64,000 nucleotides of DNA, taken from the NCBI GenBank assembly GCA_050250375.1, contig JBFWOS010000001.1:471090-535089 (forward strand), read 5' to 3'. The notes below the pieces were generated by a model, which was given only the letters and a program-made list of their open reading frames with translations, was not told the DNA's origin and searched no databases. The position numbers and the translations under genes were made by a program. Origin of the DNA: Candidatus Omnitrophota bacterium (GTDB lineage: Bacteria > Omnitrophota > Gorgyraeia > Zapsychrales > Zapsychraceae). Positions 1-21,628 of this stretch are shown here, in pieces. Each line of letters opens with the position of its first letter. Positions within the stretch are counted from its first letter, which is position 1.

Positions 1-162
1 CTCGATCCCAACAATAGCTTGCTCCAAACCGTCTTCTACATTTTTCTGAAATAGACCATTTTGTGTAATTACTACAACAATGATTACTATTATCCCAGTG
101 ACTAATAACATAAACTCAATGGTCTGTTGAGCAATCCTATTACAAAATATCTCCAGTTTCAT
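1..162 (-). CDS. Flp/Tad-type prepilin-like protein, 3'-truncated by the window edge; paralog of the N-terminus of the 190..3321 protein
   Basis: Translating the reverse complement of 1..162 gives MKLEIFCNRIAQQTIEFMLLVTGIIVIIVVVITQNGLFQKNVEDGLEQAIVGIE. This is near-identical in layout to residues 1-54 of the upstream giant protein (RAGQQTIEYVVLFAGIISVIVVAVSQNGLLQRNVEDGLEQAVVGVE). The start codon lies 28 nt downstream of the stop of that gene on the same strand. It is absent from the ORF track only because fewer than 60 aa are visible. Confidence 0.6.
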   Translation of the reverse strand, partial: MKLEIFCNRIAQQTIEFMLLVTGIIVIIVVVITQNGLFQKNVEDGLEQAIVGIE

Positions 163-189
163 CTATTAATTATAGAATAATTTATGTTC

Positions 190-3100
190 TTACTGACAGT
201 CATAATTAGAATATACAGGAGTGGAATAAGGACCCACAAAGACCACATACCGGCACGGTCCTTGGGTTAAAAGACAAGCTGTTCCAACGGCAGGATCAGT
301 ACCAGGACATCCTGGACCACCTAAAGCGCCTCCACCTGATCCAGTATATACCCATGTTCCGGGCGCTGGAACGCAGGAATTTCCTGAGCACATGTAATCA
401 GGCCCACAAGTGTTCGGACATGTCCCGGTCACCCCACAATTATTAGTCGCAGGGCCACAGGCTATTCCGGAACAAGTAACTCCGATTGGGTCAGGATTAC
501 AAAAGCATGTATTGCCAGAGCAGGCATTATTAGGAAGAGTACAAGTAAACGGGCAACTAACTACATTCCCACAATTATTCGTTGTATTTCCACAAGGAAT
601 ACTGGCACAAGTAACTCCTATGGGATCAGGGACGCAGATACATGTATTCCCTGAACAGGAGTTCATTGGTGGTGGGCAGGCAAACGGACATGCGACCACA
701 TTTCCACAATTGTTTGTCGCAGGACCGCAAGGCACACCGGCACATGTTGCCCCCAGTGAATCGGGCGTACAAATGCATGTATTTCCTGAACAATTGTTAT
801 TAGGCGCAATACATGTAAAAGGACATGTAACCGTATTCCCACAATTATTAACCGCGGTTCCGCAGGCAATCCCTGAACAAGTTACATTCAACGGCTCAGC
901 AACACATTTACACTGATTATCGATACAAGCAGTATACGGAGGCGTGACACAAGTATTACCACAATTGACAGGGAAACCACAATTATTTAAAACAGTTCCG
1001 CATTGAATACCTGCACATGTCGTCGCAGCAGGTTCAGGTGTACATCCACAAAAATTCCCTTGGCAAGTTTCCGGTAATACACAAGTATTGGGACAGGTCG
1101 TTAAATTGCCGCAATTATCGCGCGCAGTTCCGCAGTCCTTACCCGCACAGGTGACGTTGAGCTGATCTGGTACACACCCGGCACAGCCATTTCCAACACA
1201 GGCTTGTGGAGCACACGTATTGGGGCAACTTACAGTATTACCACAATTATTAGTTACTGAACCACATGGAACACCTGCGCATGTTATTTGAATAGGATCA
1301 GCAATACATGCACTACATGTGTTTCCATTACATGCGTTTGGCAATGAACATGTGTTCGGACAAGTCACGGGATCATTACAGTTGTTAGTAACAACCCCGC
1401 ACTGAACTCCGGCACAAGTTACTGATGCAGGCTCAGGGGCACAGAAGCAAATATTCGAAATACAAGCAGTATTTGGCGGCGAACAAGTATCTGGGCAATT
1501 AACTGGATTACCACAGTTGTTAAAAACGGCCCCGCACTCAACGCCAGAACAAGTACTTGCAGGAGTTTGGGCAATACACTCACACTGATTATTTACGCAA
1601 GCTAATGGTGTACAAGTATTCGGACAAATAACAGTCTGACCACAATTATTAACTGTTGGACCACACGCTAAACCAGCACAAGCTGACGCAACGGACTCAG
1701 GGACACAATTGGAACAAGTATTATCCGTACATATCGCAGGGGAAACACATGTATTTGGACATATAACATTATTTCCGCAATTATCAACCGCCGGCCCACA
1801 AGCGATTCCAGCGCAAGTTACTCCTATTGGATCTGGAGCACACCCTGCACAAGTTGTTCCAGAACATACCTGGGGCGAAACACAAGTATCCGGACAAGCC
1901 ACAGGAATACCACAGTTATTAGTCACAGTGCCACATTGAGCGGAGGCACAAGTTACTGAATCCGGATTAGGTATACATGTGCAGGCATTGGCGACACAAT
2001 CTAAATTTGGGGGGGTACAGGAATCAGGACATAGAACGGGATCAAAACAATTATCAAGTGCATATCCGCATTGAATTCCTAAACATGTTACAGAGATGTC
2101 ATCTGATGGACAAACACAAAGATTCCCGGGACTATTCCCTTGAACACATTGATCAGGGGCTATACAACTACCGCAATCAACGACTTGAAAACAATTATTT
2201 GCGGCTGGCCCACATTCATGATTAAAGCATGTAACCGCTATCGGGTCGGGAGTACAATTCAAACAAGCACTTCCAGTACAAACTTGAGGAGGAATTTGTA
2301 AAGGACATGTATCTGGACATGTAACGATATTCCCACAGTTATCTAATCGATTTCCACAAGGGACACCGGCACAAGTGGTTGCTATAGGATTTGGAATACA
2401 TCCTCCACAAGTATTTCCAGTACAAACTTCAGGAGGAACCAAGCTAGCACAAGTATTTGGACATGTAACCGTATTGCCACAATTGTTCGTTCTTGGTCCA
2501 CATGCAATTCCCGAGCATGTAACACTAATGGGCTCCGGAACACATCCAGCACATGTATTACCGCTACAAATTTGAGGAGAAACACAGGTATTCGGACATG
2601 TAACGGCCTGACCGCAGTTATTTAAAGTCAATCCGCATTGTACACCCGCACAAGTTGTGGCAGGAGAATTAGGCGTACAACAATTACTCCCGGTACAAAT
2701 AGCTGGCGCCACACACGTATTTGGACATGCAACAGAATTACCGCAATTGTTTAGTCTTACACCACATTGAGCTCCCGCACAGGTAGTTGCAATAGGCTCG
2801 GGGACACATGTACAAACATTACTTTGGCATGTTTGTGGGGCGGTACATCCTCCACAATCAATTGGAGTCCCACAGCCATCATCAATAACACCACAAGCAC
2901 CGACTGTACATGGATTGACAGGCGCACATCCACAAAGATTACCAGGCAAACAAGACTGTCCTACTGGACATCCCCCGCAATAAATGAGAACGCCACATCC
3001 ATTATTCTTATTACCGCATTCTCCAGGGTTACAAGAAACACTCGGAGTACAACTACCACAATCTGCCCCACAAATTCCCGCCTCTCCAGGTTCACAACAA

Positions 3101-3321
3101 CCATTGCCACATACAGTTACACATCCTACGCTATCAAAACAAGCTGATTCAGCCATACATTCGACCCCTACCACAGCCTGCTCCAAACCATCTTCCACAT
3201 TACGTTGAAGCAACCCATTTTGCGATACGGCTACAACAATAACACTAATAATGCCCGCAAAAAGGACGACATATTCAATTGTTTGCTGACCAGCCCTAGT
3301 TATTAAATGTTTTAGCTTCAT
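190..3321 (-). CDS. Giant Flp/Tad-like pilin-domain protein with about 20 tandem cysteine-rich repeats (1043 aa)
   Basis: The N-terminus MKLKHLITRAG|QQTIEYVVLFAGIISVIVVAV has a basic leader, a Gly, then Glu at +5 and Tyr at +6, followed by a hydrophobic helix. This is the class III / Flp-type prepilin signature (compare G|xTAIEYGLIAxLIAV). The remainder is about 20 imperfect repeats of roughly 45 aa, each with 8 Cys, with the consensus TCAGxxCGxxxNNCGxxVxCPNTCxxPxxCxGNTCxCxPxP. Confidence 0.75.
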   Translation of the reverse strand: MKLKHLITRAGQQTIEYVVLFAGIISVIVVAVSQNGLLQRNVEDGLEQAVVGVECMAESACFDSVGCVTVCGNGCCEPGEAGICGADCGSCTPSVSCNPGECGNKNNGCGVLIYCGGCPVGQSCLPGNLCGCAPVNPCTVGACGVIDDGCGTPIDCGGCTAPQTCQSNVCTCVPEPIATTCAGAQCGVRLNNCGNSVACPNTCVAPAICTGSNCCTPNSPATTCAGVQCGLTLNNCGQAVTCPNTCVSPQICSGNTCAGCVPEPISVTCSGIACGPRTNNCGNTVTCPNTCASLVPPEVCTGNTCGGCIPNPIATTCAGVPCGNRLDNCGNIVTCPDTCPLQIPPQVCTGSACLNCTPDPIAVTCFNHECGPAANNCFQVVDCGSCIAPDQCVQGNSPGNLCVCPSDDISVTCLGIQCGYALDNCFDPVLCPDSCTPPNLDCVANACTCIPNPDSVTCASAQCGTVTNNCGIPVACPDTCVSPQVCSGTTCAGCAPDPIGVTCAGIACGPAVDNCGNNVICPNTCVSPAICTDNTCSNCVPESVASACAGLACGPTVNNCGQTVICPNTCTPLACVNNQCECIAQTPASTCSGVECGAVFNNCGNPVNCPDTCSPPNTACISNICFCAPEPASVTCAGVQCGVVTNNCNDPVTCPNTCSLPNACNGNTCSACIADPIQITCAGVPCGSVTNNCGNTVSCPNTCAPQACVGNGCAGCVPDQLNVTCAGKDCGTARDNCGNLTTCPNTCVLPETCQGNFCGCTPEPAATTCAGIQCGTVLNNCGFPVNCGNTCVTPPYTACIDNQCKCVAEPLNVTCSGIACGTAVNNCGNTVTCPFTCIAPNNNCSGNTCICTPDSLGATCAGVPCGPATNNCGNVVACPFACPPPMNSCSGNTCICVPDPIGVTCASIPCGNTTNNCGNVVSCPFTCTLPNNACSGNTCFCNPDPIGVTCSGIACGPATNNCGVTGTCPNTCGPDYMCSGNSCVPAPGTWVYTGSGGGALGGPGCPGTDPAVGTACLLTQGPCRYVVFVGPYSTPVYSNYDCQ
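441..3162 (-). repeat. Coding tandem repeat array (about 135-bp unit, about 20 diverged copies) encoding the 8-Cys module of the pilin-like protein
   Basis: The protein shows a periodic CG...NNCG..V.CP.TC motif. Spurious plus-strand ORFs (410..916, 1709..1939, 2375..2575) with similar periodic composition are antisense artifacts of the same repeats. Confidence 0.7.
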
Positions 3322-3467
3322 GTGACAGTTTTAGGGGTGCATTTTACGAAAGCCATAACCTTTAGAATTCACATCTTCCATCGAAATTATTACCTGGGTC
3401 GATTAAAAGTATAACATATCTATTAGTTAATAGAAATAGATTTTTAATAAGTTAAAAAATGCAATGG

Positions 3468-4013
3468 TTACGATAGTTTATAGCATTTATCACCGACTTG
3501 AACAGATTTTGAAACCTTTAACCCTACTAATTGCCCTCGTTTTGCAACCTTTACATCAACACTTTCAATTTGCAAAGAATTAACTTTCTGTATAAAGTCG
3601 GTCACTTTCCCTTTAATATTTATCTTATCACCAATTTTTAACTCCAATTTCTCAATTTTCAAAACAACAACATTGATTTTTGAAAAATAATGAGTGACGC
3701 TCCCCACCAAAGGACTACTTACCTCATTCTTCAACACAATTTTTTTTAGTGGACCTAGTTTTCGATTTGAGTGAGGGACTTTTCGGTTGGGAGATTTCTT
3801 CTTTTTTTGTGCAGGTTTTGTTTTAACCTTTTTTGGGGCGGTCTTTTTGACAGGACCTTTTGTGGGGGGCTGAGTAACTCGGGGACGACTTCTTGTTGTT
3901 TGCTTTTTCTTTGTTTTTGGACCAGCACCAATTGTTCTACTTTTCTTCCTTTTTCGCTTGGGGGGTATAAATAATTTTCGGATCTCCTTAATAATTTCTT
4001 TTATAAACTGCAT
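3468..4013 (-). CDS. Hypothetical protein: Lys/Pro-rich basic N-terminal half plus C-terminal beta-strand-rich domain
   Basis: ORF of 181 aa. The N-terminal 110 aa are low-complexity and basic (KRKRKKSR...KKVKTKPAQKKKK). The C-terminal approx 70 aa (HYFSKINVVVLKIEKLELKIGDKINIKGKV...) alternate hydrophobic and charged residues like a small beta-barrel. I do not recognise a named family. Confidence 0.4.
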   Translation of the reverse strand: MQFIKEIIKEIRKLFIPPKRKRKKSRTIGAGPKTKKKQTTRSRPRVTQPPTKGPVKKTAPKKVKTKPAQKKKKSPNRKVPHSNRKLGPLKKIVLKNEVSSPLVGSVTHYFSKINVVVLKIEKLELKIGDKINIKGKVTDFIQKVNSLQIESVDVKVAKRGQLVGLKVSKSVQVGDKCYKLS

Positions 4014-4213
4014 TTTATAAAGAAATCCCCTGTTAAAATTAAAGGAACACCTTCATTTGCGACGACTGACAAAATTTTCTTCCCATGCGCAAATGTAAAA
4101 GTGTTATCGTTTTTGAAAATTAAAGGAATGGCACAAAGAATAAAAAGATATGACACTGCGGCGAAGATTTTTCCATCGAGGATTTTTTTATCTTCAGCTG
4201 ATTTTTTGTTCAT
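4001..4213 (-). CDS. Small membrane protein, DUF4870-like
   Basis: 70 aa. AVSYLFILCAIPLIFKNDNTFTFAHGKKILS resembles the conserved core of the DUF4870 small membrane protein family (YLxILxxIPLL..KDDEFVKFHAKQ). It overlaps the downstream ORF by 13 nt. Confidence 0.45.
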   Translation of the reverse strand: MNKKSAEDKKILDGKIFAAVSYLFILCAIPLIFKNDNTFTFAHGKKILSVVANEGVPLILTGDFFIKCSL

Positions 4214-5444
4214 CCCCCGCCTTTACTTCAATAAGCGAGTTTATATCTCCAAAAGAATTGCGTTCTTTCCGGTTATTTTTTGGGTCTTCTTTCCAAACAC
4301 CATCGACGATAAACTGATATTTGTATAACCCTGGCTTAAGAGGTATTTCTGCTTCCCACTGACCGTCTTTTTCTCTCATGCGACAAGTATCATCAAGCGA
4401 CCAGTCATTAAAACTTCCAGTAACATATACTGATTTTGCCTCAGGCGCTTCGATAGAAAAGCAGATCGTCGTTAATCCGCTCATTTCTTGTTTGACAATT
4501 TCTTTCATTTGATCCGACATAGGCGCAAATGTGTCTTTTGCAGAAACCGGCTGTTCTTCCGTTGTTGGCTTCCCTTGTAAACTTTGCGTTTCTTCCACAA
4601 ATTCTTGAGAAAAGCGCTCCGTCGTCTTTGCAGTTTTTTTCTCGGCCTTCAGCTCAACAAAAACCTTTTCAAATTCCTGTTTATCCTGCTTATCCATCAA
4701 TATCAATTCTTTCGCCAAACTGAAATAATCTTTTGATCCTCGGCAATATTTATCATACGCAGAAACCGTTTTTCCCATGACGGCCGACTCTTTTAATTTC
4801 ACATTGATGTGAATAATCGTATCGAACATCATTTTCTCAAATCGCTCTTTGAAAGTGGCCAACATCGCAAAAGAATGCCTTAGCCGGGAGTCAAACATAG
4901 TTACTAAAACCTTGCATTTCACCTCATGGTTAAGCCTGTCTTTAACTAAGTTTACAATATCCATAAGGTGGTCTACCCCTTGCATCGAAAAACGGCTTGT
5001 TTCAACCGGGATGATCAACTCATCGCTGACACGAATCGCATTTACAGTTAAAATGCCGAGACTCGGGGGGCAGTCAATAATAACGTAATCATACATCCCG
5101 CGCAAAGGCTGAACAACTTCTTTTAACTTTAACTCTCGTCCGATTTCATCGGAAAGTTCCTGTTCCAGAGTCCCAACCAATACGTTGGAAGGCACAATAT
5201 CGAAGCTTTCTTCTACTCGCCGTATAATATTATCAATCCTCAATTTTCGGGGGGTAAGCTTAGAAATCACATTATAAATACTGTCCTGGCTTTCTATGTC
5301 CAATCCTAATGAAGCATGTGCCTGCGGGTCTAGATCTAATAGGAGCACTTTTTGCCCATTTTGACTCAAGGCTGAAGCCAAGTTGATAGCTGTTGTGGTC
5401 TTACCACAACCACCTTTTTGGTTTGCTATTGAAATTATTTTCAT
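4194..5444 (-). CDS. ParA/MinD-family P-loop ATPase fused to a C-terminal AMPK-beta/CBM48-type glycogen-binding domain
   Basis: The N-terminus MKIISIANQKGGCGKTTTAINLASALSQNGQKVLLLDLDPQAHAS carries the deviant Walker A (KGGxGKT) of ParA/Soj. After a charged linker (KQDKQEFEKVFVELKAEKK) the C-terminus reads TTICFSIEAPEAKSVYVTGSFNDWSLDD...GQWEAEIPLKPGLYKYQFIVDGVWKEDPKN...GDINSLIEV. This matches the AMPK-beta GBD / CBM48 consensus (VY..GSFN.WS....G.Y.YKF.VDG.W..DP). Confidence 0.75.
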   Translation of the reverse strand: MKIISIANQKGGCGKTTTAINLASALSQNGQKVLLLDLDPQAHASLGLDIESQDSIYNVISKLTPRKLRIDNIIRRVEESFDIVPSNVLVGTLEQELSDEIGRELKLKEVVQPLRGMYDYVIIDCPPSLGILTVNAIRVSDELIIPVETSRFSMQGVDHLMDIVNLVKDRLNHEVKCKVLVTMFDSRLRHSFAMLATFKERFEKMMFDTIIHINVKLKESAVMGKTVSAYDKYCRGSKDYFSLAKELILMDKQDKQEFEKVFVELKAEKKTAKTTERFSQEFVEETQSLQGKPTTEEQPVSAKDTFAPMSDQMKEIVKQEMSGLTTICFSIEAPEAKSVYVTGSFNDWSLDDTCRMREKDGQWEAEIPLKPGLYKYQFIVDGVWKEDPKNNRKERNSFGDINSLIEVKAGDEQKIS

Positions 5445-5471
5445 ACTAAATTGCCCCCTAATAGTTTTAGG

Positions 5472-6053
5472 TTAATTGGTTGTTGCAAAATTCAAATTAT
5501 CAATTAATACCATTCCCCTTTTGTTATCGACGTTCCACGATTCCAAGACAAAGGAAATATCGGTAATACTTGTCCAGTCAGAAATTTGTTTAAATTCATC
5601 CAGAGGTATCCGGTACTGCTGCCAGTTCAAATTGACCCCTTGGATGTAGAAATAGGAGGATTCATTATACCGGTTGTTCATAACAACCTTAACAATACCA
5701 GGAACACCCTCTTCCTTCCCCCTCATCGTAAACTCCAAACTACCATACCGGCTGATGTCCATCGGCGGGATGGACAACGCAAACGTCTCTACCGGATTTG
5801 CCGAGGTTTTAAAATCGTATTCAAAGCGCAACGGTCCCTGGTGAAGCGAATAGATAACATTGTTTTTTAGGGTCTTTTTTTGCTGAGTCAGAAAAGCTGT
5901 TAGCCCATAAAAAGCACTGGCAAAAATGACGGCCGTTATTAAACCGTTTATGAGAAGCCAAGCATTAAACTGCTTCTTTGTTCTGGCGTCATCTTTTTTT
6001 CGCTTACCCAAATAGACCTGAGCTAAATGGTCATATATATCATCTTTGGTCAT
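5472..6053 (-). CDS. Hypothetical membrane-anchored protein
   Basis: 193 aa with a basic cytoplasmic N-terminus, one TM helix (WLLINGLITAVIFASAFYGLTAFL) and an extracytoplasmic domain. No recognisable family. Confidence 0.4.
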   Translation of the reverse strand: MTKDDIYDHLAQVYLGKRKKDDARTKKQFNAWLLINGLITAVIFASAFYGLTAFLTQQKKTLKNNVIYSLHQGPLRFEYDFKTSANPVETFALSIPPMDISRYGSLEFTMRGKEEGVPGIVKVVMNNRYNESSYFYIQGVNLNWQQYRIPLDEFKQISDWTSITDISFVLESWNVDNKRGMVLIDNLNFATTN

Positions 6054-6302
6054 CGCAAAATCTTTTGTAAGATTACTATTAGATAAGATTAAAGGAATTG
6101 AGAAGAAAAATATTTATCTAATTATTTTTATCATAACAAATTAATGATAAAAGAAAACTATAATTTCACTTTTTTTCATTAACCGTATTAAAATTTACCG
6201 ACGAGAATAATTTTCTATCAATCAATAAAATATTAATCATAGAAAATAACTTCCGTCGTAGAATAATATTTGCAGAATTGTCGAGAAGAATACCCATAAA
6301 TC

Positions 6303-6338
6303 AAAAAGCCCTTGCCGAATTTTCGGCAAGGGCTTTTT
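6303..6338 (-). terminator. Rho-independent terminator (bidirectional hairpin) downstream of the porin-like gene
   Basis: AAAA-AGCCCTTGCCGAA-tt-TTCGGCAAGGGCT-TTTTT: a perfect 13-bp stem flanked by an A-run and a T-run, immediately after the stop codon at 6357. Confidence 0.8.
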
Positions 6339-6356
6339 AATAAAAACTTATATTAG

Positions 6357-7715
6357 TTAGAACGCAACATTCATACTAACTAATGCTTGTTTTGCTGTTG
6401 AATTGTTTTCATTATCAAAAACACTTCCGGCAAAGAACCAGCCTATTGATGTTCCGATCGTAACATCTTCGGTGTAATCATAGGTCAGATCAAAATTAAT
6501 TTCTTTACCAAGGAAACTGCTGTCTGTTTTCGCTAACAATTCCTGAGTGCCACCTGTTGGCAATCGTGTTTCAATATCAGGTGATTTCAAGTCTCTCTCT
6601 AACCATATGGCAGTAAGTGCCAGCCGAGCGGTGACATCTTCCATCGGCTCAGCAGTAAAATAGAAAGAGTGAATAACTGAATTGGTCAGGTCAAACAAAG
6701 TATTGTAGATATGGCCTCCACCTTGCGCTTCATAGAACGGATCCCAACCAGTATAATCAGTATTGTTAACATCTGTATCGGTATCCCCTGTTGTTTTGGT
6801 GAAGATGTATTGAGCAACAGGCTTGTATTCTTCAAGAACAGGTAATTGGTAATTCACGATACCCTGAACAGCCCAGGCATCTCTTTTTCTGTTATCACCG
6901 GGGCCACCCACTCTATGGGTGCCACCTTGATGGGCAACTTCCGCTTGGAGATTCAACCCTTCAATCGGGTTTGTACTGGCACGGACGCCTGTAACTTTTA
7001 TCCAATTTGTCTTAGCGCCTGTAGCACTAACATTACCTGATTTATCGCGTTGCTTAAAGAAATACGCTTCAAGAACGGAATCCATGTCATCACCCAATTG
7101 ATAATTGGCGTTGACGCCCCACAGATCCTTGTCGTCATCCAAATGGTTAATCGTAACTGTATTTTGATCAATCTTCGCATAAAATACAGTCACGGTCAAC
7201 GGGTTGTAGTCAAAGATGGCACGGATCGCATCCAAAGATGTTTGTTTAGTCAAATCTTGCGCGATTGATCTGATACCTGAATCACCAGGAGCAACGTTGT
7301 TGGCTCCGGTTGCATCAAACACCAGACCATTCCCAAAAGAAAATACCTGACGACCGACGACTAAAGTCAACGGCGAATAAAGCATTTCTTTTAAGGTTAC
7401 ATAAGCAAGATAGATGTCTACTTCAGATGTTGATTCACTTTCACCACCATCAGCTCCCCATCCTCGTTCGCCGATAAGAGCGATCGTGACATAGACTTGG
7501 TCGGTCAAATCCGCATCGACTTGAAGACCGGTCTGATTGATAAAAACATCTTGGGTATCTGTTCCGCCTGATCCTTTACCAAGATCAAACTCTTGACGGT
7601 GTACAAACGTATTGTTTGTCCATCCGCCAATTTTTACGTTTTGAACGCTAGCAAATGCTGGAGCAGCTGTTGCCGCCATGGCCAATGCTACCGCTAATAC
7701 GATTAATTTTCTCAT
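6357..7715 (-). CDS. Outer-membrane beta-barrel protein (porin-like) with signal peptide
   Basis: Signal peptide MRKLIVLAVALAMAATAAPAFA. Alternating amphipathic beta-strand pattern throughout, and a C-terminal ...SMNVAF ending in Phe as in OMP beta-barrels. Confidence 0.55.
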   Translation of the reverse strand: MRKLIVLAVALAMAATAAPAFASVQNVKIGGWTNNTFVHRQEFDLGKGSGGTDTQDVFINQTGLQVDADLTDQVYVTIALIGERGWGADGGESESTSEVDIYLAYVTLKEMLYSPLTLVVGRQVFSFGNGLVFDATGANNVAPGDSGIRSIAQDLTKQTSLDAIRAIFDYNPLTVTVFYAKIDQNTVTINHLDDDKDLWGVNANYQLGDDMDSVLEAYFFKQRDKSGNVSATGAKTNWIKVTGVRASTNPIEGLNLQAEVAHQGGTHRVGGPGDNRKRDAWAVQGIVNYQLPVLEEYKPVAQYIFTKTTGDTDTDVNNTDYTGWDPFYEAQGGGHIYNTLFDLTNSVIHSFYFTAEPMEDVTARLALTAIWLERDLKSPDIETRLPTGGTQELLAKTDSSFLGKEINFDLTYDYTEDVTIGTSIGWFFAGSVFDNENNSTAKQALVSMNVAF

Positions 7716-8129
7716 TTTTCCCCTCCAAAAAGGTAGATATAATAACGCTTAAAGTTGTATATCAATCAACTAGATATTTTCATGGGCATTAATCTAGATA
7801 ATTACATTATGAATCGACCAGCTCTATCGATGATCCTGAATATATTTTTTTACCATCCCCCCTTTCTTATTAAAAAGTAGGATCATCACTGGTTTGTTTT
7901 TACCGACCTAGTCAAACTTCACAGAAAGACCAGGCCCAATAAAAACTTTGGGTATTGTTGAATTTTTTACCATAGCCAACAGATGGTGTCAACATTTTTT
8001 AAATATTTTTTCAATCGCGTTGAATTTCTGCAAATTATTGAAAATCCGAAATATAGGATTTTCTTATCAACTCTCATTTTGATCTGCCATAACCCCTTTT
8101 ACAACTTGATTTTTGATGCCTGTTAAAAG

Positions 8130-8202
8130 TGCGCCTAGGTGGACTCGAACCACCCCCCCAGCCTTAGGAGAGCCGTGCTCTATCCATCTGAGCTATAGGC
8201 GC
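8130..8202 (-). tRNA. tRNA-Arg (anticodon CCT)
   Basis: The reverse complement folds as a canonical cloverleaf. Acceptor GCGCCTA/TAGGCGC, D-stem GCTC/GAGC, anticodon stem CGGCT/GGCTG with loop CU-CCU-AA, T-stem GGTGG/CCACC with loop TTCGAGT, discriminator A. No CCA is encoded. Confidence 0.85.
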
Positions 8203-8228
8203 ACGAAGATTTTTCAACCATACCCCTA

Positions 8229-10658
8229 CTAATGAATCGCTTCAAACGTCCGCATTAAATCGGATGATGGCTCAAACCCCAACATAACTGCTTCATTATA
8301 ATATTTCTTGGCTTCCAACCGGTCGCCTTTGTTATAACTTGTTATTGCCAGGTTGATCCATGCGTTCAGATGATTCGGGTTTAATTCCACTGTCTTTTGA
8401 TAAGACTTAATAGCGTCCTGCTCTTTCTCTAGCTTTAGGTAGACATTACCCAGATTGTAATACGCTTCCGGGTTGTCCGGATTGTACTGTAAAGTCGTCT
8501 TATATTTGTTAACCGCTTCCGAATATTTTCCGGACGTCTCAAAGGTATAAGCCAGATTGAAATAAGCCCGAGAATTTCTGGGATTTACTGTTATTGCTTT
8601 TTGATAATACTCCTGGGATTTTTCCAGACTGCCCCTTTGGTTATATATATTTCCTATTTTGACCAATGCATCTGAATGGCCGGGGTCATACCGGATTACC
8701 CGTGTAAAAAAATCCAACGCATCATTCCAGTTCTTGGCCTCCAGGTTAATATTCCCCAACGCATATAATGCCCTGATGTGTTTCGGATTAATCGCAAGAA
8801 CCCTTTCAAAAGTGGATTTCGCCCGAGAAAAATCATTCATTTTTGAATAGATTGATCCAAGGTTATAATAGGAATCTGCGTTCGGGGAACCTTTATTAAT
8901 GAATTTTACATAATTATCGAGTATCTGATAAATGGCAGAACGTAGCCTGATGTTGTCGGGATCAAAACGATACGCATCGTTATAAACATCAATCACTGAA
9001 ACAAACTCTTTTTCACGTATCGGCGGTAAGGCAAGATACTGATTAAAGGCCAAATAAGCTTTTTCATCCTCTTTCAAATTGGTGTACATAAGTCCCATTC
9101 GATAATAGACTATTTTATAAAAAGGATCAATGGCAATTGCCTGACGATACATTTCGATCGCGTTCATATACAATCCTAAATCCTGATAAAGACTGCCTAA
9201 CTTGAATGGAATATCGACATAGTCCGGGGCCACCAGCCTGGCTCTTTCTAAAAGGTTGATTAGATAATTAACCTTTTTAATGTTTTTCTGTGTTTCTTCC
9301 GTAAAATGCAATTCATACCCTTCCAACTTTAATTTAACAATTTTTCTAAACTCTCCTTCAGCCAGTCTGAAATCGTCATATTTTCTCAAAGCCGCCACCA
9401 ATCCATTAAGAGCAATCGGTTCGTTCGGGTAATGGATTAATTGATGCCGCCAAAGGGCCACATCATTCTGCCACACCTGGGTCTGTTTATAGGTTGTCAT
9501 GCCCATCATTGCAAAGAGAACAAAAACCAGGGCAACAGATACCGCCTTACCTGCAACCGCATATTTTTTTCCGTTCAACCATACAAATGCCCTTTGTACG
9601 GCATACCCAAACAGCAAACAAATTCCTAGGCTTGGTAAATACATAAATCTGTCGGCAACAATATTGGTATCTTTAGCCGCATCAAACCTGATCAAAAAGA
9701 ATATGGATAGCAGAAAATATAAAAAAGCAAACCGGATCCACTTGGATTTTCGCATCCGGATGAAACTAAAAATCACGATCAAAGTTACAATTACAGAAAA
9801 TAAATATTCAGGATTGTCGGCTGAGAGCGGCACTGGCAATCTGACGATCGGAACCATAATTAAGGGCAGCATAAACTGCCGAAGATAAAAAAGAAATGAC
9901 CAGCAAGACACCAGTACGGCCTGTCCGATATCCGCGAACGGCACCCGAGAATGTTCCATGTAGGTCAAAAATGTAACGGCCGCAATCATAACGAACAATG
10001 CTATTTTCTCAAGAAAAATACTTTTATCCATTCGTCTTGATTTAAACCAATCAATCAATAGAAGGATTAGCGGCAAACTCATAGCCATTGGTTTCGCAAG
10101 AATACTAAGAAGCCCGAACAAATGGGTTAAGAAATAATATATTTTCCCCGAATAACTACTTTTGTCCCGCCCCAGACAATATAACCTGCGCTCATAACAC
10201 AAAAGTGCAAGCATATAAAACAAAGAATAGAGCACATCCTTGCGTTCCGTGATCCAGGCCACTGATTCAACATGCATCGGGTGCAGTCCAAATAATAAAG
10301 CTGCCAATGCAGCAGGCGCCGAGTTCAGGCCAAACCGCACGGCCAAGAAATAAACCAATATTGTCACCAAAAGATGCAATATTAAATTGTTCACATGATA
10401 AATATAAGGATTATCTTGGAAAAAGTGGTATTCCACGGCAAAACTTAAAATTGTGAGTGGAATATATGTATGATGAACTTTCTGTGAAAATATTCTTTGA
10501 ACATTATCCTGAGTCAAAGACAATACAGATTCATTCTCATAAAGATGCGTATGGTCGTCCCATCGTAAAAAATCGGCCTTTAGAGACGGCAGGAATGAAC
10601 AAAAGATTACACCCGTCACAAATATAAGGATAAAAAAATGTTTTATAAGATTTTTCAC
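8229..10658 (-). CDS. TPR-repeat protein with N-terminal polytopic membrane domain (TMTC/DUF1736-like glycosyltransferase-39-type architecture)
   Basis: 809 aa. The first approx 400 aa hold many hydrophobic helices. The C-terminal half has many TPR-like repeats (AxxYYNLGxxY..G.xxxAIxxYQKAL...P). Confidence 0.6.
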   Translation of the reverse strand: MKNLIKHFFILIFVTGVIFCSFLPSLKADFLRWDDHTHLYENESVLSLTQDNVQRIFSQKVHHTYIPLTILSFAVEYHFFQDNPYIYHVNNLILHLLVTILVYFLAVRFGLNSAPAALAALLFGLHPMHVESVAWITERKDVLYSLFYMLALLCYERRLYCLGRDKSSYSGKIYYFLTHLFGLLSILAKPMAMSLPLILLLIDWFKSRRMDKSIFLEKIALFVMIAAVTFLTYMEHSRVPFADIGQAVLVSCWSFLFYLRQFMLPLIMVPIVRLPVPLSADNPEYLFSVIVTLIVIFSFIRMRKSKWIRFAFLYFLLSIFFLIRFDAAKDTNIVADRFMYLPSLGICLLFGYAVQRAFVWLNGKKYAVAGKAVSVALVFVLFAMMGMTTYKQTQVWQNDVALWRHQLIHYPNEPIALNGLVAALRKYDDFRLAEGEFRKIVKLKLEGYELHFTEETQKNIKKVNYLINLLERARLVAPDYVDIPFKLGSLYQDLGLYMNAIEMYRQAIAIDPFYKIVYYRMGLMYTNLKEDEKAYLAFNQYLALPPIREKEFVSVIDVYNDAYRFDPDNIRLRSAIYQILDNYVKFINKGSPNADSYYNLGSIYSKMNDFSRAKSTFERVLAINPKHIRALYALGNINLEAKNWNDALDFFTRVIRYDPGHSDALVKIGNIYNQRGSLEKSQEYYQKAITVNPRNSRAYFNLAYTFETSGKYSEAVNKYKTTLQYNPDNPEAYYNLGNVYLKLEKEQDAIKSYQKTVELNPNHLNAWINLAITSYNKGDRLEAKKYYNEAVMLGFEPSSDLMRTFEAIH

Positions 10659-10737
10659 TCAACTGCCCGCATATATATTTGGTTTGTGATCAAGAATGTT
10701 TATAACGAAGAAAACTAGGAATGTTACCCGGAACTAT

Positions 10738-11271
10738 TTAATATTTCAAAACGGAATAAACGTCGAAATCTTTTAGCCGGTCTTTGCCTTTCAAAAACTG
10801 TAATTCGATCAAAAAAGCGATTCCGGCCACTACCGCCTTTTGCTCGCGAATCAGTTTGGAAACAGCCTCTATCGTTCCTCCCGTGGCGAGAAGATCATCA
10901 ACGATTAATACCCGAGATTTAGGCTTAATCGCATCTTCGTGAATTTCCAGACTATCTGTTCCGTACTCCAGCGCATAGGTGACACTTTTGGTCTTCCCGG
11001 GCAATTTTCCCTTTTTACGGACAGGAACAAATCCGACTCCCAGTTTGTAAGCTAACGCCGCCCCAAAAATAAACCCGCGGGCTTCAACGCCGACGACCTG
11101 AGCAATTTTCTCATTTTTGAATTTCCGGGCTAACAGATCAATTGACTTCTTAAACGCGTCTTTATCTTTTAATAAAGTTGTTATATCTTTAAAAAGAATC
11201 CCTTCTTTCGGAAAGTCCGGAATATCCCGGATATGCCCCTTCAAATCACTTTTTCGCATTTTTGTCTTCAT
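10738..11271 (-). CDS. apt: Adenine phosphoribosyltransferase
   Basis: [18 protein letters not shown]...[34 protein letters not shown]...[16 protein letters not shown], the type I PRTase PRPP-binding motif. Confidence 0.85.
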
Positions 11272-12190
11272 GATCTTTTATTTTCTGGGTTGATTCACGC
11301 TTGACGAATTTGGTAGCCAGCACCTGTTTATACGGCAATTTTACTTCCCCCCGTGAAATTTGAAACAACTTCTCAGTACCTAACCGGCCCATTTCAAGCA
11401 ATGGCTGGGAAACAGTCGTCAATTTCACGGTACTGCTTTGAATCAGCGGATTATCGTCAAAACCGATAATCGATAATTCTTCGGGTGTTTTAATCCCCAT
11501 CGTCCTAGCCACATCCCATAATTCGAGTGCCATAACATCGGAACCCGCAAAAACGGCCGTCGGACGATTTTTCAAATTTAATAATTTACGGGCGGCCGTA
11601 CGCGCTGGGGTCCTTAAAAAATCACCAAAGGTGATATACGACCTGGGAATCGTTATCCCTTTATTATCCAAAGCCTCGCGAAACCCCTCAAGTCTTTTTA
11701 AACCCGCCTGCGTTGAAACATCCCCCGCGATAGTCGCTATTTGTTTATGCCCCAGTTTTAAAAAATGCTCCACAACATTATAAGCGGCTTTCCAATTGTC
11801 GACGGCCACATAATTGATCGGCTCATCCAGAATATTGTTCAATACCATGCACGGCATGCCTCGTTGAATCGCTTTCTTGACGATAGCAACGTCATTGTCT
11901 ATATCAGCAAATATAATCCCATCAATATAATTCTTATCCATAAGCGTGGAATCCAGCCAGCCGCGATGGTCGGAACGGTCGACAATATGAATGAGATAAT
12001 CGGCACTTAACCGGCTTGCGGAAAGGCTCACCCCGCGGATAATTTCTCCGGCATAGTAAGAATGGAAGATGTCTTCAAAACGGGGTATGACTAATACAAA
12101 TGTGGGTTTTCGTTTTCGACTAATCAACTTCTTGATTTTTTTCTTTTTGTTCGATGATTTGTCTAATTTTTTTAATGGTCCCGGCTTCAA
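11246..12190 (-). CDS. LacI/PurR-type periplasmic-binding-fold (sugar-binding) domain protein; start codon uncertain
   Basis: [50 protein letters not shown] is the typical LacI C-terminal sensor-domain motif. The annotated N-terminus overlaps the sigma-factor gene by about 70 nt and is low-complexity basic instead of an HTH_LacI domain. The ORF track accepts GTG/TTG starts, so the true start is probably internal. Confidence 0.55.
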
Positions 12191-12944
12191 TCTGGCGAAC
12201 GCGTTCTCTTGATATACCCAATGCCTTGGCTATTTCTGCGAGCGTTCTGGCCTCACCATCCGACAGGCCGTAACGCATTTCAAGAATTTTTCGTTCGCGC
12301 TCATTGAGCATTTCAAGAAATCCCATCGCCCGCTCTTTATTAAAGAATTTTTCCAATTCTTCATCGGGAGCGACGATATTATGATCCTGAATAATATCTT
12401 TGACCTGTCCGTCCCCCTCTTCCCCGATTGGGGCGTCAAGGCTCGACATCTTGGCGATTGAATTCTCAAGTTCACGGACTTTATCAACCGGAACTTTCAA
12501 TTTTTTAGCAATCTCACCGACTCTGGGTTTTCGTTTAAATTGATGTGTTAATTTCTCAACCACTTTTTTATATTTAAGAATGTCCTCGTTCATATAAACC
12601 GGGACACGTATCATCTTCCCTTGATCAATGATCGCCCGGGAAATACCCTGCTTAATCCACCAAGCGGCATAGGTAGAGAAGCGGAATCCTTTTTCGGGAT
12701 CAAACTTTTCCACACTTTTCATCAAACCGATGTTTCCCTCTTCGATTAAATCACTTAGAGGGACCCCCAAATTTACATATCTTTTGGCAATACTGATAAC
12801 CAAACGTAAATTTGAGCGAATCATCTGATTACGAGCGTCCTGGTCTCCTTTTTGCACTTTCCGAGACAAAGTCACTTCTTCTTCCGCCGTCAAAAGGGGT
12901 ATCGGTCTGACATCTTTCAAATATGCTTTTATAGGATCTGTCAT
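12120..12944 (-). CDS. RNA polymerase sigma-70 family factor (RpoD/RpoS-like; regions 1.2, 2, 3, 4)
   Basis: DPIKAYLKDVRPIPLLTAEEE (region 1.2); NLRLVISIAKRYVNLGVPLSDLIEEGNIGLMKSVEKFDPEKGFRFSTYAAWWIKQ (region 2); [29 protein letters not shown] (region 4.2). Confidence 0.85.
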   Translation of the reverse strand: MTDPIKAYLKDVRPIPLLTAEEEVTLSRKVQKGDQDARNQMIRSNLRLVISIAKRYVNLGVPLSDLIEEGNIGLMKSVEKFDPEKGFRFSTYAAWWIKQGISRAIIDQGKMIRVPVYMNEDILKYKKVVEKLTHQFKRKPRVGEIAKKLKVPVDKVRELENSIAKMSSLDAPIGEEGDGQVKDIIQDHNIVAPDEELEKFFNKERAMGFLEMLNERERKILEMRYGLSDGEARTLAEIAKALGISRERVRQIEAGTIKKIRQIIEQKEKNQEVD

Positions 12945-12950
12945 AAGGGC

Positions 12951-15677
12951 TTATTTCTTTTTCTGGTTAGTCGTTTTACTGCTCCCGTTGGCTTCAATAG
13001 CCGCTTGCGCTGCCGCCAGCCGGGCAATCGGAACTCGATACGGCGAACAACTGACATAATTCAAACCGACACGGGCAAAGAATTTGACAGATTCCTGATC
13101 CCCGCCGTGTTCACCGCAAACTCCGCACTTCAGGTCTTTACGAATCGACCGTCCTCTTTCAACACCGGTCTGAACAAGTTGGCCAACGCCTTCTTGATCA
13201 ATCGATGCAAACGGATCATCCTGAAGTATTTTCTTTTGTAAATATTCAGGCAAGAAAGTACCGATATCATCCCGACTGAAACCGAATGTCATTTGCGTCA
13301 AATCATTGGTTCCAAAAGAAAAGAATTCGGCATCTTTAGCCACTTTATCAGCGATCAAAGTCGCACGCGGAATTTCCATCATTGTTCCAACAAGGTATTT
13401 GATCTTTGAATTTTTCATCTTAATAATTTCATCTGCCGTCTTTCGTGTTATTTCCGCCAGCATTTGAAATTCTTTATCTGTTCCGATCAAAGGTATCATA
13501 ATTTCAGGAATAACTTTGACTCCTTTTTGAGCGACATTACAAGCGGCTTCAATAATGGCCGTAACCTGCATCCGGCAAATTTCCGGATAAGTGATCGATA
13601 ATCGGCACCCCCTGTGTCCTAACATAGGATTAAATTCATGCAGTGCCTCGACCTTATGTTTGACTATGGCCGGAGTCGTATTTAATCTCTTTGCCATTTC
13701 TGCCTGTCCGACCTTATCATGCGGTAAGAACTCGTGCAATGGCGGATCTAATAATCGGATGGTGACCGGGTGGCCATCCATGGCTTTAAAAATCCCTTCG
13801 AAATCTTTTCTCTGATAAGGCAATAATTTGGCCAAGGCTTTTTCTCGACCGGCAATGTCTGATGCTAAAATCATTTCCCGAATAGCCCAAATACGGTCCC
13901 CTTCAAAGAACATATGTTCTGTTCGGCACAATCCGATACCCTCAGCCCCTAATTTCCGGGCATTCAGGGAATCCTTTGGCGAATCCGCGTTGGTTCGTAT
14001 GTCCAATTGTCGATATTTATCCGTCCAACTCATAATTTCGGAATACATCTTGCAAATCGGGTGATTGAGGGCTTTCTTGTCTCCATCAACAATGCCTGAA
14101 ACAACAGGTGACGCTGACGTTTCGACATATCCAACGATAATTTCCCCCGTACTACCATCGATGGAGATTTCGTCCCCTTCGCGCACAATACGAGACCCCA
14201 CGGAGATTAGTTTTTTCTTATAATCAATCTGTAAAGCCCCACATCCAACGACACAACACTTTCCCCATCCACGAGCGACAACAGCGGCATGAGATGTCAT
14301 CCCGCCGGTTGAGGTCAGGATTGCCTGCGCGGCCCACATCCCGCTGACATCTTCCGGAGATGTCTCTTTTCGGACAAGGATTACTTTCTCCCCTTTGGCC
14401 GCCCATTTTACCGCTTCATCGGCGGAAAAAACAACCAAGCCACTGGCTGCACCAGGACCTGCTGGGAGACCTTTAGCCAATAATCGATTTTCCGTTAAGG
14501 CGGATTGTTTGGCTTTAGGATTAAAAATCGGGAATAACAGCTGGTTCAATTGATCCCCATGAATTCGTTTTAAAGCCGTTTTTTCATCAATTAATCCTTC
14601 TTTAACCATATCCACTGCGATTTTAATCGCAGCCAGACCTGTCCGTTTACCATTTCTGGTTTGAAGCATAAACAGCTTACCTTCCTGAATGGTAAATTCA
14701 ACGTCCTGCATATCTTTATAATGCCTTTCCAGCATCAACCGAATTTTATTAAGTTCTTCATAAATCACCGGCATCTTTTTCTTAAGTGTGGAAATCGGTT
14801 CTGGCGTCCGAATTCCAGCCACAACGTCTTCACCCTGGGCATTGATCAAATATTCCCCGTAAAATTCATCAGTACCGTCAGCAGGATTGCGGGTAAAGGC
14901 TACTCCTGTACCCGAACTGTCCCCCATATTTCCATAAGCCATGGCCTGTACGTTTACGGCGGTACCTTTTAATCCGCGCAATTTATTAATGTCGCGGTAT
15001 GCAATGGCTCTATCAGCGTTCCAGGAACGGATAACAGCGTTAATAGAATGGGTTAATTGTTCCCGGGCATTTGTCGGAAAATCTTTACCAACATACTTTT
15101 TGTAAACCGCTTTATAGGCGCCTACAACTTCTTTTAACTCAGCGGCCGTTAAATCTGTATCCAACGCTCTGTTATATTTTTTCTTAATGCGGGTTAGCTC
15201 TTCTTCAAAATGATCATGATGGACTTCCATACAAACGTCCCCGAACATGTTGATGAATCTTCGGTAAGAATCCCACGCCATACGTTCATTATTTGTTTTC
15301 TTTGCGAGACCAATGACGGCCTCATCATTAATCCCGAGATTAAGGACTGTATCCATCATGCCGGGCATTGATACCGCTGCCCCGGAACGCACAGAAACCA
15401 AAAGCGGGTTTTCGGCGTCTCCAAACTTTGCATTCATGGCCTTTTCAAGTTTCTTGATATTTGCATCAATTTCTTTATCGAGAGTGTCCGGCTTTTTCTG
15501 ACCATTGGAGTAATAATAATCACAAACCGTCGTCGCAATCGTAAATCCAGGCGGAACAGGAACACCGATTGATGACATTTCCGCCAAATTCGCCCCTTTA
15601 CCACCTAATTCCTCTTTCATACTTGCCTTGCCTTCGGCTGTTCCGTTACCGAAGAAATACACATACTTCTTTGACAT
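12951..15677 (-). CDS. ppdK: Pyruvate, phosphate dikinase
   Basis: 908 aa. N-terminus MSKKYVYFFG.....GGKGANLAEM. Motifs VRSGAAVSMPGMMDTVLNLG, phosphohistidine GGMTSHAAVVARGWGKCCVVGC, and C-terminal GIGLCRTEHMFFEGDRI / FFSFGTNDLTQMTFGFSRDD. Confidence 0.9.
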   Translation of the reverse strand: MSKKYVYFFGNGTAEGKASMKEELGGKGANLAEMSSIGVPVPPGFTIATTVCDYYYSNGQKKPDTLDKEIDANIKKLEKAMNAKFGDAENPLLVSVRSGAAVSMPGMMDTVLNLGINDEAVIGLAKKTNNERMAWDSYRRFINMFGDVCMEVHHDHFEEELTRIKKKYNRALDTDLTAAELKEVVGAYKAVYKKYVGKDFPTNAREQLTHSINAVIRSWNADRAIAYRDINKLRGLKGTAVNVQAMAYGNMGDSSGTGVAFTRNPADGTDEFYGEYLINAQGEDVVAGIRTPEPISTLKKKMPVIYEELNKIRLMLERHYKDMQDVEFTIQEGKLFMLQTRNGKRTGLAAIKIAVDMVKEGLIDEKTALKRIHGDQLNQLLFPIFNPKAKQSALTENRLLAKGLPAGPGAASGLVVFSADEAVKWAAKGEKVILVRKETSPEDVSGMWAAQAILTSTGGMTSHAAVVARGWGKCCVVGCGALQIDYKKKLISVGSRIVREGDEISIDGSTGEIIVGYVETSASPVVSGIVDGDKKALNHPICKMYSEIMSWTDKYRQLDIRTNADSPKDSLNARKLGAEGIGLCRTEHMFFEGDRIWAIREMILASDIAGREKALAKLLPYQRKDFEGIFKAMDGHPVTIRLLDPPLHEFLPHDKVGQAEMAKRLNTTPAIVKHKVEALHEFNPMLGHRGCRLSITYPEICRMQVTAIIEAACNVAQKGVKVIPEIMIPLIGTDKEFQMLAEITRKTADEIIKMKNSKIKYLVGTMMEIPRATLIADKVAKDAEFFSFGTNDLTQMTFGFSRDDIGTFLPEYLQKKILQDDPFASIDQEGVGQLVQTGVERGRSIRKDLKCGVCGEHGGDQESVKFFARVGLNYVSCSPYRVPIARLAAAQAAIEANGSSKTTNQKKK

Positions 15678-15703
15678 TTGAGTTCGACCTTTCTTTAGTG
15701 AGA

Positions 15704-17011: not shown

Positions 17012-17080
17012 GGAAAGTTATTCTAACAAATGTTTATCAAAAAGCAAGAAATATGTAACTTCTGTATATATTTATTAATA

Positions 17081-21042: not shown

Positions 21043-21439
21043 TCTAAGAAATTATTTTATAAACCAATTTTAACTGATTAAATATCCATATGTTAGAAAT
21101 GTTCTTTTCGCAACCAGACTGACCTAATGATGGTCGGTTTATCTTCACGGTTTCTGATGACAAAATAAGTCATTTGTTTGAAATTTTATAGAAGACTATT
21201 ACACGTGATCGTATCTTATCAACCAATGGCATCCAATGAATATTTCACATTGTAATCCAATTTGCCTTTGGTGTCCATCTCAACTTCGGGCCTTATCAAG
21301 ATGCGGATTATCCCAATATCTGAATCTGCCAATTTATTCCTCCCGTGTTATCAAATCTTGCAACAAGCAAAACACCTAAGACACCACTCAAATAAACGGA
21401 TGATTGTCTCAATAATTTCTTTATTATTAACTGGTTAAA

Positions 21440-21628
21440 TTAGATAAATACCCACGGCGGCGGTGTGGGCATCTTTTTTATGATTCCGAAAATTTGGCCA
21501 AGCACAGAAAACGCCCCGCCAATAATTTGACCGGGAATGGCTAAAAGCGAGCACCCGCTTAATGAAACGACCATCAACAATAAGAGTAGGATTAAGAAAT
21601 ATCTAGATGTGAATTTCATTGACACCAT
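21440..21628 (-). CDS. Small putative lipoprotein
   Basis: 62 aa. Signal with lipobox LSGC, then a Gly-rich amphipathic segment. Nothing but composition supports it. Confidence 0.3.
   Translation of the reverse strand: MVSMKFTSRYFLILLLLLMVVSLSGCSLLAIPGQIIGGAFSVLGQIFGIIKKMPTPPPWVFI

Follow-up and report, generated by a model that had tools for sequence, protein, structure and literature searches.

The stretch of a Candidatus Omnitrophota genome analyzed here (hereafter the window; 64,000 nucleotides, contig JBFWOS010000001.1, positions 471,090 to 535,089) carries on its minus strand, at 4194..5444, a gene for a protein of 416 residues that consists of a Soj/ParA-type ATPase, a variable linker and a C-terminal carbohydrate-binding module (CBM) of the AMPK-beta type, CBM48. 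The architecture of this protein, referred to below as the fusion, is real, broad in its distribution and undescribed. As to function, we infer, in a tentative reading whose chances we put at somewhat less than even, that the protein is a cytoplasmic ATPase of the Soj/ParA type with a built-in alpha-glucan (glycogen) binding module, attached through a flexible tether, and that it would couple glycogen particles to the ParA ATP cycle. ParA/MinD ATPases are the general means by which bacteria place chromosomes, plasmids, carboxysomes, chemoreceptor arrays and division sites. Full-text literature searches returned no ParA-CBM fusion, no ParA-glycogen link and no ParA-dependent organization of glycogen, in agreement with an earlier reading of the sequence alone (the sequence-only reading), which had held the fusion to be undescribed.

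The fusion is a genuine two-domain protein

The gene begins with ATG and ends with a stop codon at 4194-4196. Residues 1-250, the ATPase domain, are encoded at 4695..5444, the linker (residues 251-322) at 4479..4694 and the CBM48/AMPK-beta-type module (residues 323-410) at 4215..4478, all on the minus strand. The sequence-only reading had proposed a ParA-like ATPase joined to a CBM48 domain over this same gene; both of its domain calls were right, and the motifs it quoted, SVYVTGSFNDWS and GLYKYQFIVDGVWKEDP, are present in the translation. Besides the open reading frame (ORF) itself and the Pfam matches, the gene is backed by independent assemblies: the identical protein (P0001) was called on NCBI GCA_050181705.1, on Logan SRR27751815 and on a 1.23-Mb contig. 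Together with hundreds of two-domain orthologues, this identity rules out a chimeric misassembly. The alignment shows a strongly conserved ATPase core and CBM joined by a linker that varies in sequence and length, and the fusion is therefore regarded as a real two-domain protein.

The linker was delimited by conservation profile, composition and the AlphaFold (AF2) model, and is rich in Lys, Glu, Gln and Thr. Lys and Glu make up 30% of residues 250-325 compared with 18% of the whole protein, in line with the Lys/Glu-rich linker reported earlier, whose position (about 4560..4700) agrees with ours. Across the family its length ranges from -5 to 353 residues, with a median of 51. The predicted local distance difference test score (pLDDT) falls below 50 at residues 270-307, and helices are modeled at residues 240-274 and 311-321, so that the model predicts both helical and disordered parts in the linker.

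The C-terminal module belongs to the AMPK-beta type of CBM

The hidden Markov model of AMPK1_CBM (PF16561) matched residues 335-410 with 57.7 bits (gathering cut-off 26.8), and that of CBM_48 (PF02922) scored 27.2 bits (cut-off 22.4), which bears out the CBM48 call. When the domain was searched alone, residues 336-411 matched the CBMs of rat and human AMPK beta1/beta2 in the PDB (E ~3e-9), and all PDB sequence matches to the module were alpha-glucan-related (AMPK beta, pullulanase, GlgB, neopullulanase, LSF1 and SIP2). In the AF2 model the module is all beta, with pLDDT values of 74-87. Foldseek searches with the full-length model were uninformative on the CBM, as the top 50 matches were all ParA-type. 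The CBM is C-terminal in every family member, with a median of one residue beyond it. Since there is no signal peptide and the ATPase begins at residue 1, the CBM should be cytoplasmic; glycogen is the main cytoplasmic alpha-glucan.

Around the binding site, the module aligns with rat AMPK beta1 (1Z0M/1Z0N) without gaps, and the residue numbering of the alignment is self-consistent. The identity is 27/72, or 37.5%, so the earlier statement that the domain matches the CBM48 consensus nearly residue for residue was overstated. The AMPK beta1 residues W100, K126, W133, L146, T148 and N150 correspond to W348, Q377, W384, F398, D400 and N402, respectively. Among these, W100, K126, W133 and N150 are critical residues of the cyclodextrin complex (PMC4032982). 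The carbohydrate-binding Trp and Lys positions, singled out earlier for a conservation check, gave a divided answer: both Trp residues are kept, and the Lys126 equivalent is Gln, which had gone unnoticed. W348 was found in 322/322 and W384 in 319/322 family CBMs. N402 is conserved without exception in close relatives, and 112 of 124 diverse representatives have N or D at this position. Both Trp residues and the equivalents of Asn150 and Gly147 are, with the surrounding motifs, invariant across 120 close relatives. A generic Ig/E-set fold without sugar-binding residues was thus rejected for the family on the basis of Pfam, PDB and residue conservation, with the change from K126 to Gln in the window's subclade as a real caveat. 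As judged from sequence, the CBM is a genuine member of PF16561 in which one position is non-canonical, and the ATPase a member of the ParA/MinD superfamily on its Soj side.

CBMs close to that of the fusion also occur in a set of other proteins (P0122, P0136, P0141, P0200, P0216, P0217, P0238, P0239, P0263 and P0266), which consist largely of 4-18 tandem CBM48/AMPK1_CBM modules; P0122, with 1812 residues, has 17 Pfam CBM repeats. Such tandem proteins may be polyvalent glucan-binding scaffolds.

The ATPase half resembles Soj and is predicted to be active

In Pfam, AAA_31 covered residues 1-176 with 187.9 bits (cut-off 27) and CbiA residues 4-225 with 66.5 bits. Against the PDB, residues 2-251 were closest to the ParA 8RAY (177 bits), followed by the Soj proteins of H. 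pylori (HpSoj; 138 bits) and T. thermophilus (TtSoj; 129 bits). The AlphaFold model of the fusion (pLDDT 71) superposed best on 8RAY and Soj structures, and the top Foldseek matches were ParA/Soj with target template modeling (TM) scores of 0.77-0.85, the 8RAY match having 36% identity and a TM score of 0.85. The deviant Walker A motif reads NQKGGCGKTT, with the signature Lys10 and the P-loop Lys15, both of which are invariant in all aligned sequences (120 close relatives, ~120 diverse representatives and 79 loci). The Walker A' residues Asp37 and Asp39, the latter aligned with D41 of HpSoj, and the Walker B Asp124 are likewise invariant in every aligned fusion sequence. Given this invariance, the ATPases of the family should be active, dimerizing ParA ATPases. 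A basic cluster formed by R187, R/K189, K/R216 and K/R218 is conserved across the whole family; R187 we take to be the equivalent of Arg189 in B. subtilis Soj. Position 192 is R/K in 91/126 diverse members, and carries Arg or Lys in most members outside the Omnitrophota. The segment FDSRLRHSF, which lies at the DNA-lysine region, is invariant in the Omnitrophota clade, the same clade that has extra operon partners.

Several known classes of ParA/MinD ATPase were tried and rejected. For MinD, TIGR01968 scored 56.9 against 212.9, and the fusion ends in a CBM and not in an amphipathic membrane-targeting helix. The BcsQ and BY-kinase models also fell short (TIGR03371, 70.5 against 157.85; TIGR01007, 44 against 108; TIGR03018, 34 against 230), and the Pfam family CBP_BcsQ matched full length with 44.9 bits. 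McdA was rejected on the presence of the signature Lys in the fusion, the lack of carboxysome genes in the annotated part of the window and a match to McdA structures of only 62 bits. The NCBIfam model ParA_partition (NF041546) gave 117 bits, below its cut-off of 180, and the RepA, SopA and PrgP models were also far below theirs. In the databases the fusion is named only 'AAA family ATPase' or 'chromosome partitioning protein'.

A Cys at position 13 of the P-loop (GGCGKT; codon 5406..5408) was found in 120/120 close relatives, 79/79 loci and 112 of ~120 diverse fusion representatives; HpSoj and the 8RAY ParA have Val there. This Cys is a hallmark of the family and may have a redox role.

The fusion is ancient and widespread

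Both domains are present in each of the 120 best database clusters (61-100% identity). A profile search that covered 1.84 billion representatives showed ParA+CBM proteins to account for 124 of the top 150 clusters at 50% identity, and a scan with one genome per species found a relative in at least 592 genomes, the best 80 of which were nearly all full-length matches. The phylogenetic distribution asked for earlier is thus broad, and the fusion is ancient and widespread. Most relatives are labeled Omnitrophota. Full-length matches at 33-40% identity came from metagenome-assembled genomes (MAGs) of different submitters labeled Phycisphaerae, Sedimentisphaerales, Tepidisphaerales, Pirellulales, Thermodesulfobacteriota/'delta proteobacterium' and Eisenbacteria, and they include a closed 5.06-Mb Phycisphaerales genome. 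A separate Planctomycetota subfamily comprises more than 120 clusters. Where loci that are 60% identical and have the Omnitrophota operon were automatically labeled 'Planctomycetales', some of these labels are probably wrong. No cultured host was seen among 120 Planctomycetota-type matches or 20 cluster look-ups, the hosts being uncultured Omnitrophota, Phycisphaerae and relatives.

Two loci depart from this architecture. In one Omnitrophota MAG (L086, 6001..7085) the fusion is split into a 301-residue ParA ORF (P0125) and an overlapping 97-residue AMPK1_CBM ORF within the operon, either as two natural polypeptides or through a frameshift error. P0125 had been considered as a CBM-less Omnitrophota paralogue, and was rejected as such because it is the same gene, in the same operon, split into ParA and CBM ORFs. 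In a Desulfobacteraceae MAG (L081, 5953..7230) a 425-residue ParA is 47% identical over the ATPase domain and has a different C-terminal extension of ~165 residues, with no Pfam domain and no CBM. Judging from that locus, the same ATPase lineage may carry alternative C-terminal modules.

In Omnitrophota the fusion lies in a conserved operon

Neighborhoods were compared across 80 loci, of which about 45 (L001-L047) are of the Omnitrophota type. These share a translationally coupled block on the same strand, with overlaps or gaps of at most 27 bp. The sequence-only reading had pictured a self-contained system; this is not borne out in Omnitrophota, where the fusion is coupled to three conserved partners, found in 44, 29 and 39 of these loci. 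The first, of 193 residues in the window (5472..6053, minus strand) and 191-193 in the family, lies directly upstream of the fusion in 44 loci. It has a predicted cytoplasmic N-terminal motif, IYDHLAQVYLGKRKK, that is nearly invariant, a transmembrane helix at about residues 31-55 and a beta-jelly-roll domain of CBM11/CBM30-like type at residues 67-190. From the charge distribution around the single transmembrane helix, its first ~30 residues are predicted to be cytoplasmic and its CBM-like domain periplasmic. The N-terminal IYDHLAQVYLGK(R) is invariant among sequences that are otherwise 55-90% identical. The tail (…VYLGKRKK) contains an L-G-K/R motif like that of the ParA-activating tip of ParB, which reads MAKNKVLGRG in HpParB, with conserved Leu7 and Arg9, and includes Lys3 and Lys7 in BsSpo0J (PMC11229316). 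The motif is short, and a ParB-like activation of ParA by this tail is therefore a lead only.

Directly downstream of the fusion, in 29 loci, is a small DUF4870-like membrane protein (PF09685; MamF_MmsF in the precomputed table). In the window it has 70 residues (4001..4213, minus strand) and its gene shares 20 nucleotides with the 3' end of the ParA gene. Relatives have ~107 residues; the 107-residue orthologue of L001 has a weak PF09685 match, and DUF4870 scored 20 bits, below the cut-off. The window protein diverges after 'HGKK', and the next gene has an N-terminal extension that overlaps it. The gene is thus probably truncated here, in what looks like a local deletion or the decay of an operon member. 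The third partner, of 181 residues (3468..4013, minus strand), overlaps the preceding ORF by 13 nucleotides and is found on the same strand in 39 loci. Its ~90-residue N-terminus is Lys-rich and of low complexity, and is followed by a conserved beta-barrel with weak matches to GTP_EFTU_D2 and Peptidase_U32_C and, in a PDB profile search, to domain II of eIF5B, SelB and EF-Tu (E ~1e-3). An outer-membrane porin of the Alginate_exp type (6357..7715, minus strand; PF13372, 59.9 bits) lies 2-4 kb upstream on the same strand in 31 loci; this context is conserved, and its membership of the unit is uncertain, with a gap of 303 bp to the 193-residue gene in the window. Promoter and terminator scans of the operon gave counts equal to the shuffled expectation and were uninformative.

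Outside the Omnitrophota-type loci the partner models found nothing except the upstream partner at L053, and the neighborhood is variable, without ParB or glycogen genes and with no enrichment of any kind. The sole recurrent neighbor is a protein of ~477 residues, encoded directly downstream on the same strand in nine loci (L049, L050, L058, L061, L065, L070, L072, L074 and L076); two examples that were scanned had no Pfam domain. This protein may be a lineage-specific partner of the fusion.

Neither parB nor other known adaptor genes lie beside the fusion

Neither parB nor the gene of another known cargo adaptor is adjacent to the fusion, as had been noted from the sequence alone, and none was found in the window or in the 80 related loci. 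The precomputed annotation, which covers ~60 kb of the 64-kb window, contains no ParB domain; a crude regular expression for the ParB box found no signature in the window or the 80 loci; and no ParB family is among the top 25 Pfam families of the neighbor censuses. A second Soj-like ParA was likewise absent from the window and the loci, except for one weak match. As regards glycogen, a 519-residue GH57 enzyme (Pfam, 227 bits; closest PDB entries GH57 proteins, 290 bits) lies directly upstream of the block, on the same strand, in 26 loci, and most Omnitrophota MAGs have been inferred to make glycogen (PMC8542988). These two observations lend the glycogen link independent support.

Proposed mechanism

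On the reading that we favor, ATP binding would bring two molecules together as a sandwich dimer, exposing a pair of CBMs and a basic face. A glycogen particle carrying many of these dimers would be linked to a matrix, which, in analogy to ParA, McdA and related ATPases, would most probably be the nucleoid. The result would be granules that are kept apart from one another, or that pass to each daughter cell, rather than expelled to the poles. In Omnitrophota the operon partners, rather than ParB, would set the ATPase cycle. The invariant N-terminal tail of the upstream membrane protein, predicted to be cytoplasmic, is the best candidate activator there, and the Lys-rich beta-barrel protein is a candidate anchor to DNA or another polyanion. 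Outside the Omnitrophota the fusion is an orphan, and may function by itself or together with unlinked partners. In its most extended form the proposal is that of a widespread 'glycogen partition system', with direct cargo recognition through the fused CBM48, a matrix formed by the nucleoid or, through the CBM11-like partner, by the envelope and, in Omnitrophota, a ParB-unrelated activator that mimics LG(K/R). This extended form we consider possible and, on balance, doubtful.

A number of observations weigh against the favored reading. The positioning or segregation of granules is what we infer from sequence, and a ParA that sits permanently on its cargo can work as a classical Brownian ratchet only with local stimulation of hydrolysis. 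The predicted periplasmic CBM-like domain of the upstream partner is unexplained by the granule model, and the LGK motif in the tail of that protein is three residues long, with a chance of occurring in such a tail that we roughly estimate at ~2-3%. There is no glg gene in the annotated ~60 kb of the window, the window's subclade has no GH57 neighbor, and glycogen genes other than GH57 were not enriched near the fusion in any clade in the neighbor Pfam censuses. The GH57-linked loci all fall within one clade that is ~44-56% identical to the window protein, and may thus go back to a single ancestral arrangement. The DNA-contacting lysines of HpSoj are K199, K227, K230 and K247 (PMC6393308), and only one of the four is kept in the fusion (K230, as K216), the others being F192, I213 and Y233, respectively; nucleoid binding is therefore uncertain in the window's subclade. 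The sugar-binding site raises a similar concern, in that Q377 occupies the K126 position both in the window protein and in 119/120 close relatives.

This last point leads to the view that the C-terminal module has lost carbohydrate binding in the window's subclade and serves as an Ig-like protein-protein interaction domain. In AMPK beta1, W100G and K126Q each eliminate glycogen binding (PMC6274970). In addition, the equivalents of L146 and T148 are changed, and the module weakly matches an NCBIfam model of a T9SS plug Ig-like domain. We nevertheless regard such a loss as very unlikely. Position 377 is K/R in 116 of 124 diverse representatives, with Gln confined to the window's subclade, and 114/120 close relatives have Lys375, which lies on the same strand at a distance of two residues toward the N-terminus and could compensate; a basic residue at 375 or 377 was found in 313/323 proteins. 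This suggests that the basic residue has been relocated, not lost, in the subclade. The near-invariance of the Trp and Asn residues and the retention of a basic residue at one of these two positions argue against a loss of function, as the residues invariant in the 120 close relatives, namely the Trp pair and the Asn150 and Gly147 equivalents with their motifs, are exactly the ligand-contacting set. Moreover, the Pfam score is twice the gathering cut-off, and AKINbeta2, which has neither K126 nor N150, still binds starch (PMC4032982).

The main rival explanation takes the fusion for a chromosome-partitioning ParA (Soj) whose ParB is encoded elsewhere, with the CBM as an anchoring or regulatory appendage, and we consider it rather unlikely. 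It comes in variants, for which jointly we see no better prospects: ParA might be sequestered on glycogen bodies, for instance at the poles, or segregation or replication control might be gated by the carbon reserve. Polar anchoring has precedents in other bacteria in PadC/bactofilin and TipN. In favor of this explanation, the ATPase domain is closest to chromosomal ParA/Soj, it has the signature Lys and an invariant Arg that we take to be the equivalent of BsSoj Arg189, it is annotated in the sources as a 'chromosome partitioning protein', and there is no second Soj-like ParA in the window or the loci save the one weak match. Regulation by carbon reserve would fit with the inhibition of AMPK by glycogen through a CBM of the same type (PMC2642990/PMC6274970), and polar sequestration with E. 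coli, where glycogen is reported to accumulate at the poles and to shift the nucleoids (PMC12706056). In this species glycogen has also recently been shown to form bodies that are excluded from the nucleoid and skew division. What speaks against it is the lack of a ParB signature beside the fusion in the window, the 80 loci and the top 25 census families. A chromosomal parA is normally followed by parB. Furthermore, the ParA_partition score falls short of its cut-off, only one of the four DNA lysines of HpSoj is kept, and the operon partners are membrane proteins and proteins without known function.

A further explanation, which we think distinctly unlikely, is an envelope or glycan-handling module in which the ATPase places or regulates a membrane complex made up of the CBM11-like protein, the DUF4870-like protein and perhaps the porin, and in which the CBM48 binds a cytoplasmic alpha-glucan substrate or primer and not storage granules. 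BcsQ, of the ParA/MinD family, places cellulose synthase. Two tightly coupled neighbors of the fusion are membrane proteins, one with a predicted periplasm-facing CBM fold, and the conserved Alginate_exp porin upstream, the full-length CBP_BcsQ match and the occurrence of GH57 in the same gene string point in the same direction. However, these partners are confined to Omnitrophota-type loci, apart from the upstream partner at L053, and elsewhere the fusion has unrelated neighbors. The operon contains no synthase or glycosyltransferase genes, the BcsQ and BY-kinase models are far below their cut-offs, and the porin gene stands apart in the window.

Comparison with known systems

Compared with chromosomal ParA/Soj (6IUB/8JMJ, 2BEK and 8RAY), the fusion has the same fold, the same catalytic machinery and a basic cluster on helices alpha8-alpha9. 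It differs in the C-terminal CBM48 on a long linker, in the absence of an adjacent parB in about 80 genomes, in the P-loop Cys, in the replaced DNA lysines and in the ParA_partition score below the cut-off. With McdA/McdB, PpfA, ParC, PomZ and MipZ it would share the use of a ParA-family ATPase for non-DNA cytoplasmic cargo and of partners unrelated to ParB. The charged, disordered Lys-rich protein encoded beside the fusion is reminiscent of McdB, and McdA lacks the signature Lys that the fusion has (PMC9178275). In McdA-type systems the cargo is recognized by a separate adaptor, whereas the cargo module of the fusion is built into the ATPase.

The CBM is in the same Pfam family as that of AMPK beta (1Z0M/1Z0N) and keeps the equivalents of W100, W133, N150 and G147. 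It differs in being carried on a ParA ATPase instead of a kinase scaffold, and in its changes from K126 to Gln, with a Lys at i-2, from L146 to Phe and from T148 to Asp. Non-catalytic modules of the AMPK1_CBM type that bring another activity to a polyglucan particle are found in plant PTST1, which targets GBSS to starch (PMC6322578), and in yeast Atg45, a glycogen autophagy receptor (PMC11145338). In contrast to the fusion, both are eukaryotic and have coiled-coil or Atg-interaction partners, and no P-loop positioning ATPase is known to take part in either. BcsQ is likewise a ParA/MinD-fold protein tied to polysaccharide biology, and CBP_BcsQ matches the fusion over its full length, but BcsQ has no CBM, there are no bcs genes near the fusion, and the TIGR03371 score is low.

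To our knowledge, every cargo-positioning ParA/MinD ATPase studied is linked to its cargo by a separate adaptor. A cargo receptor fused to the ATPase across at least 592 species-level genomes would be a different design, with glycogen as an actively organized cargo. If the extended form of the proposal holds, the fusion would be the first case of a positioning ATPase whose cargo receptor is built in, and it would represent the first active organization of glycogen in bacteria. The family would offer a simple, testable case of a ParA cycle without a ParB-like adaptor, and three uncharacterized partner families, one of them a membrane protein with a ParB-like tail, would gain a functional context.

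Other features of the window

The annotated ~60 kb of the window are housekeeping in character, with genes for pyruvate phosphate dikinase (PPDK), sigma-70, tRNA synthetases, DnaE, GroEL and UvrB. Nearly all long ORFs over 1..64000 lie on the minus strand. The cumulative GC skew declines monotonically over the whole window, from which it follows that no replication origin or terminus lies inside it.

Downstream of the operon, at 190..3321 on the minus strand, a protein of 1043 residues without a Pfam match is encoded. By its look, we take the N-terminus (…GQQTIEYVVLFAGI…) to be a Flp/Tad-type pilin leader followed by a hydrophobic segment. The N-terminal segment of the protein clusters with proteins of 80-87 residues that are conserved downstream of the operon in 9-10 loci. 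The remainder consists of ~20 diverged Cys-rich repeats of ~45 residues each (…C.G..CG...NNCG..V.CP.TC…), and TRF found no repeats in this gene at the DNA level. The protein may be a pilin with a giant Cys-rich extension. At 41865..50267, also on the minus strand, lies a gene for a protein of 2800 residues whose only Pfam domains are those of PPDK, at residues ~995-2093, leaving ~990 N-terminal and ~700 C-terminal residues unannotated; an ordinary PPDK of 908 residues is also encoded, at 12951..15677 on the same strand.

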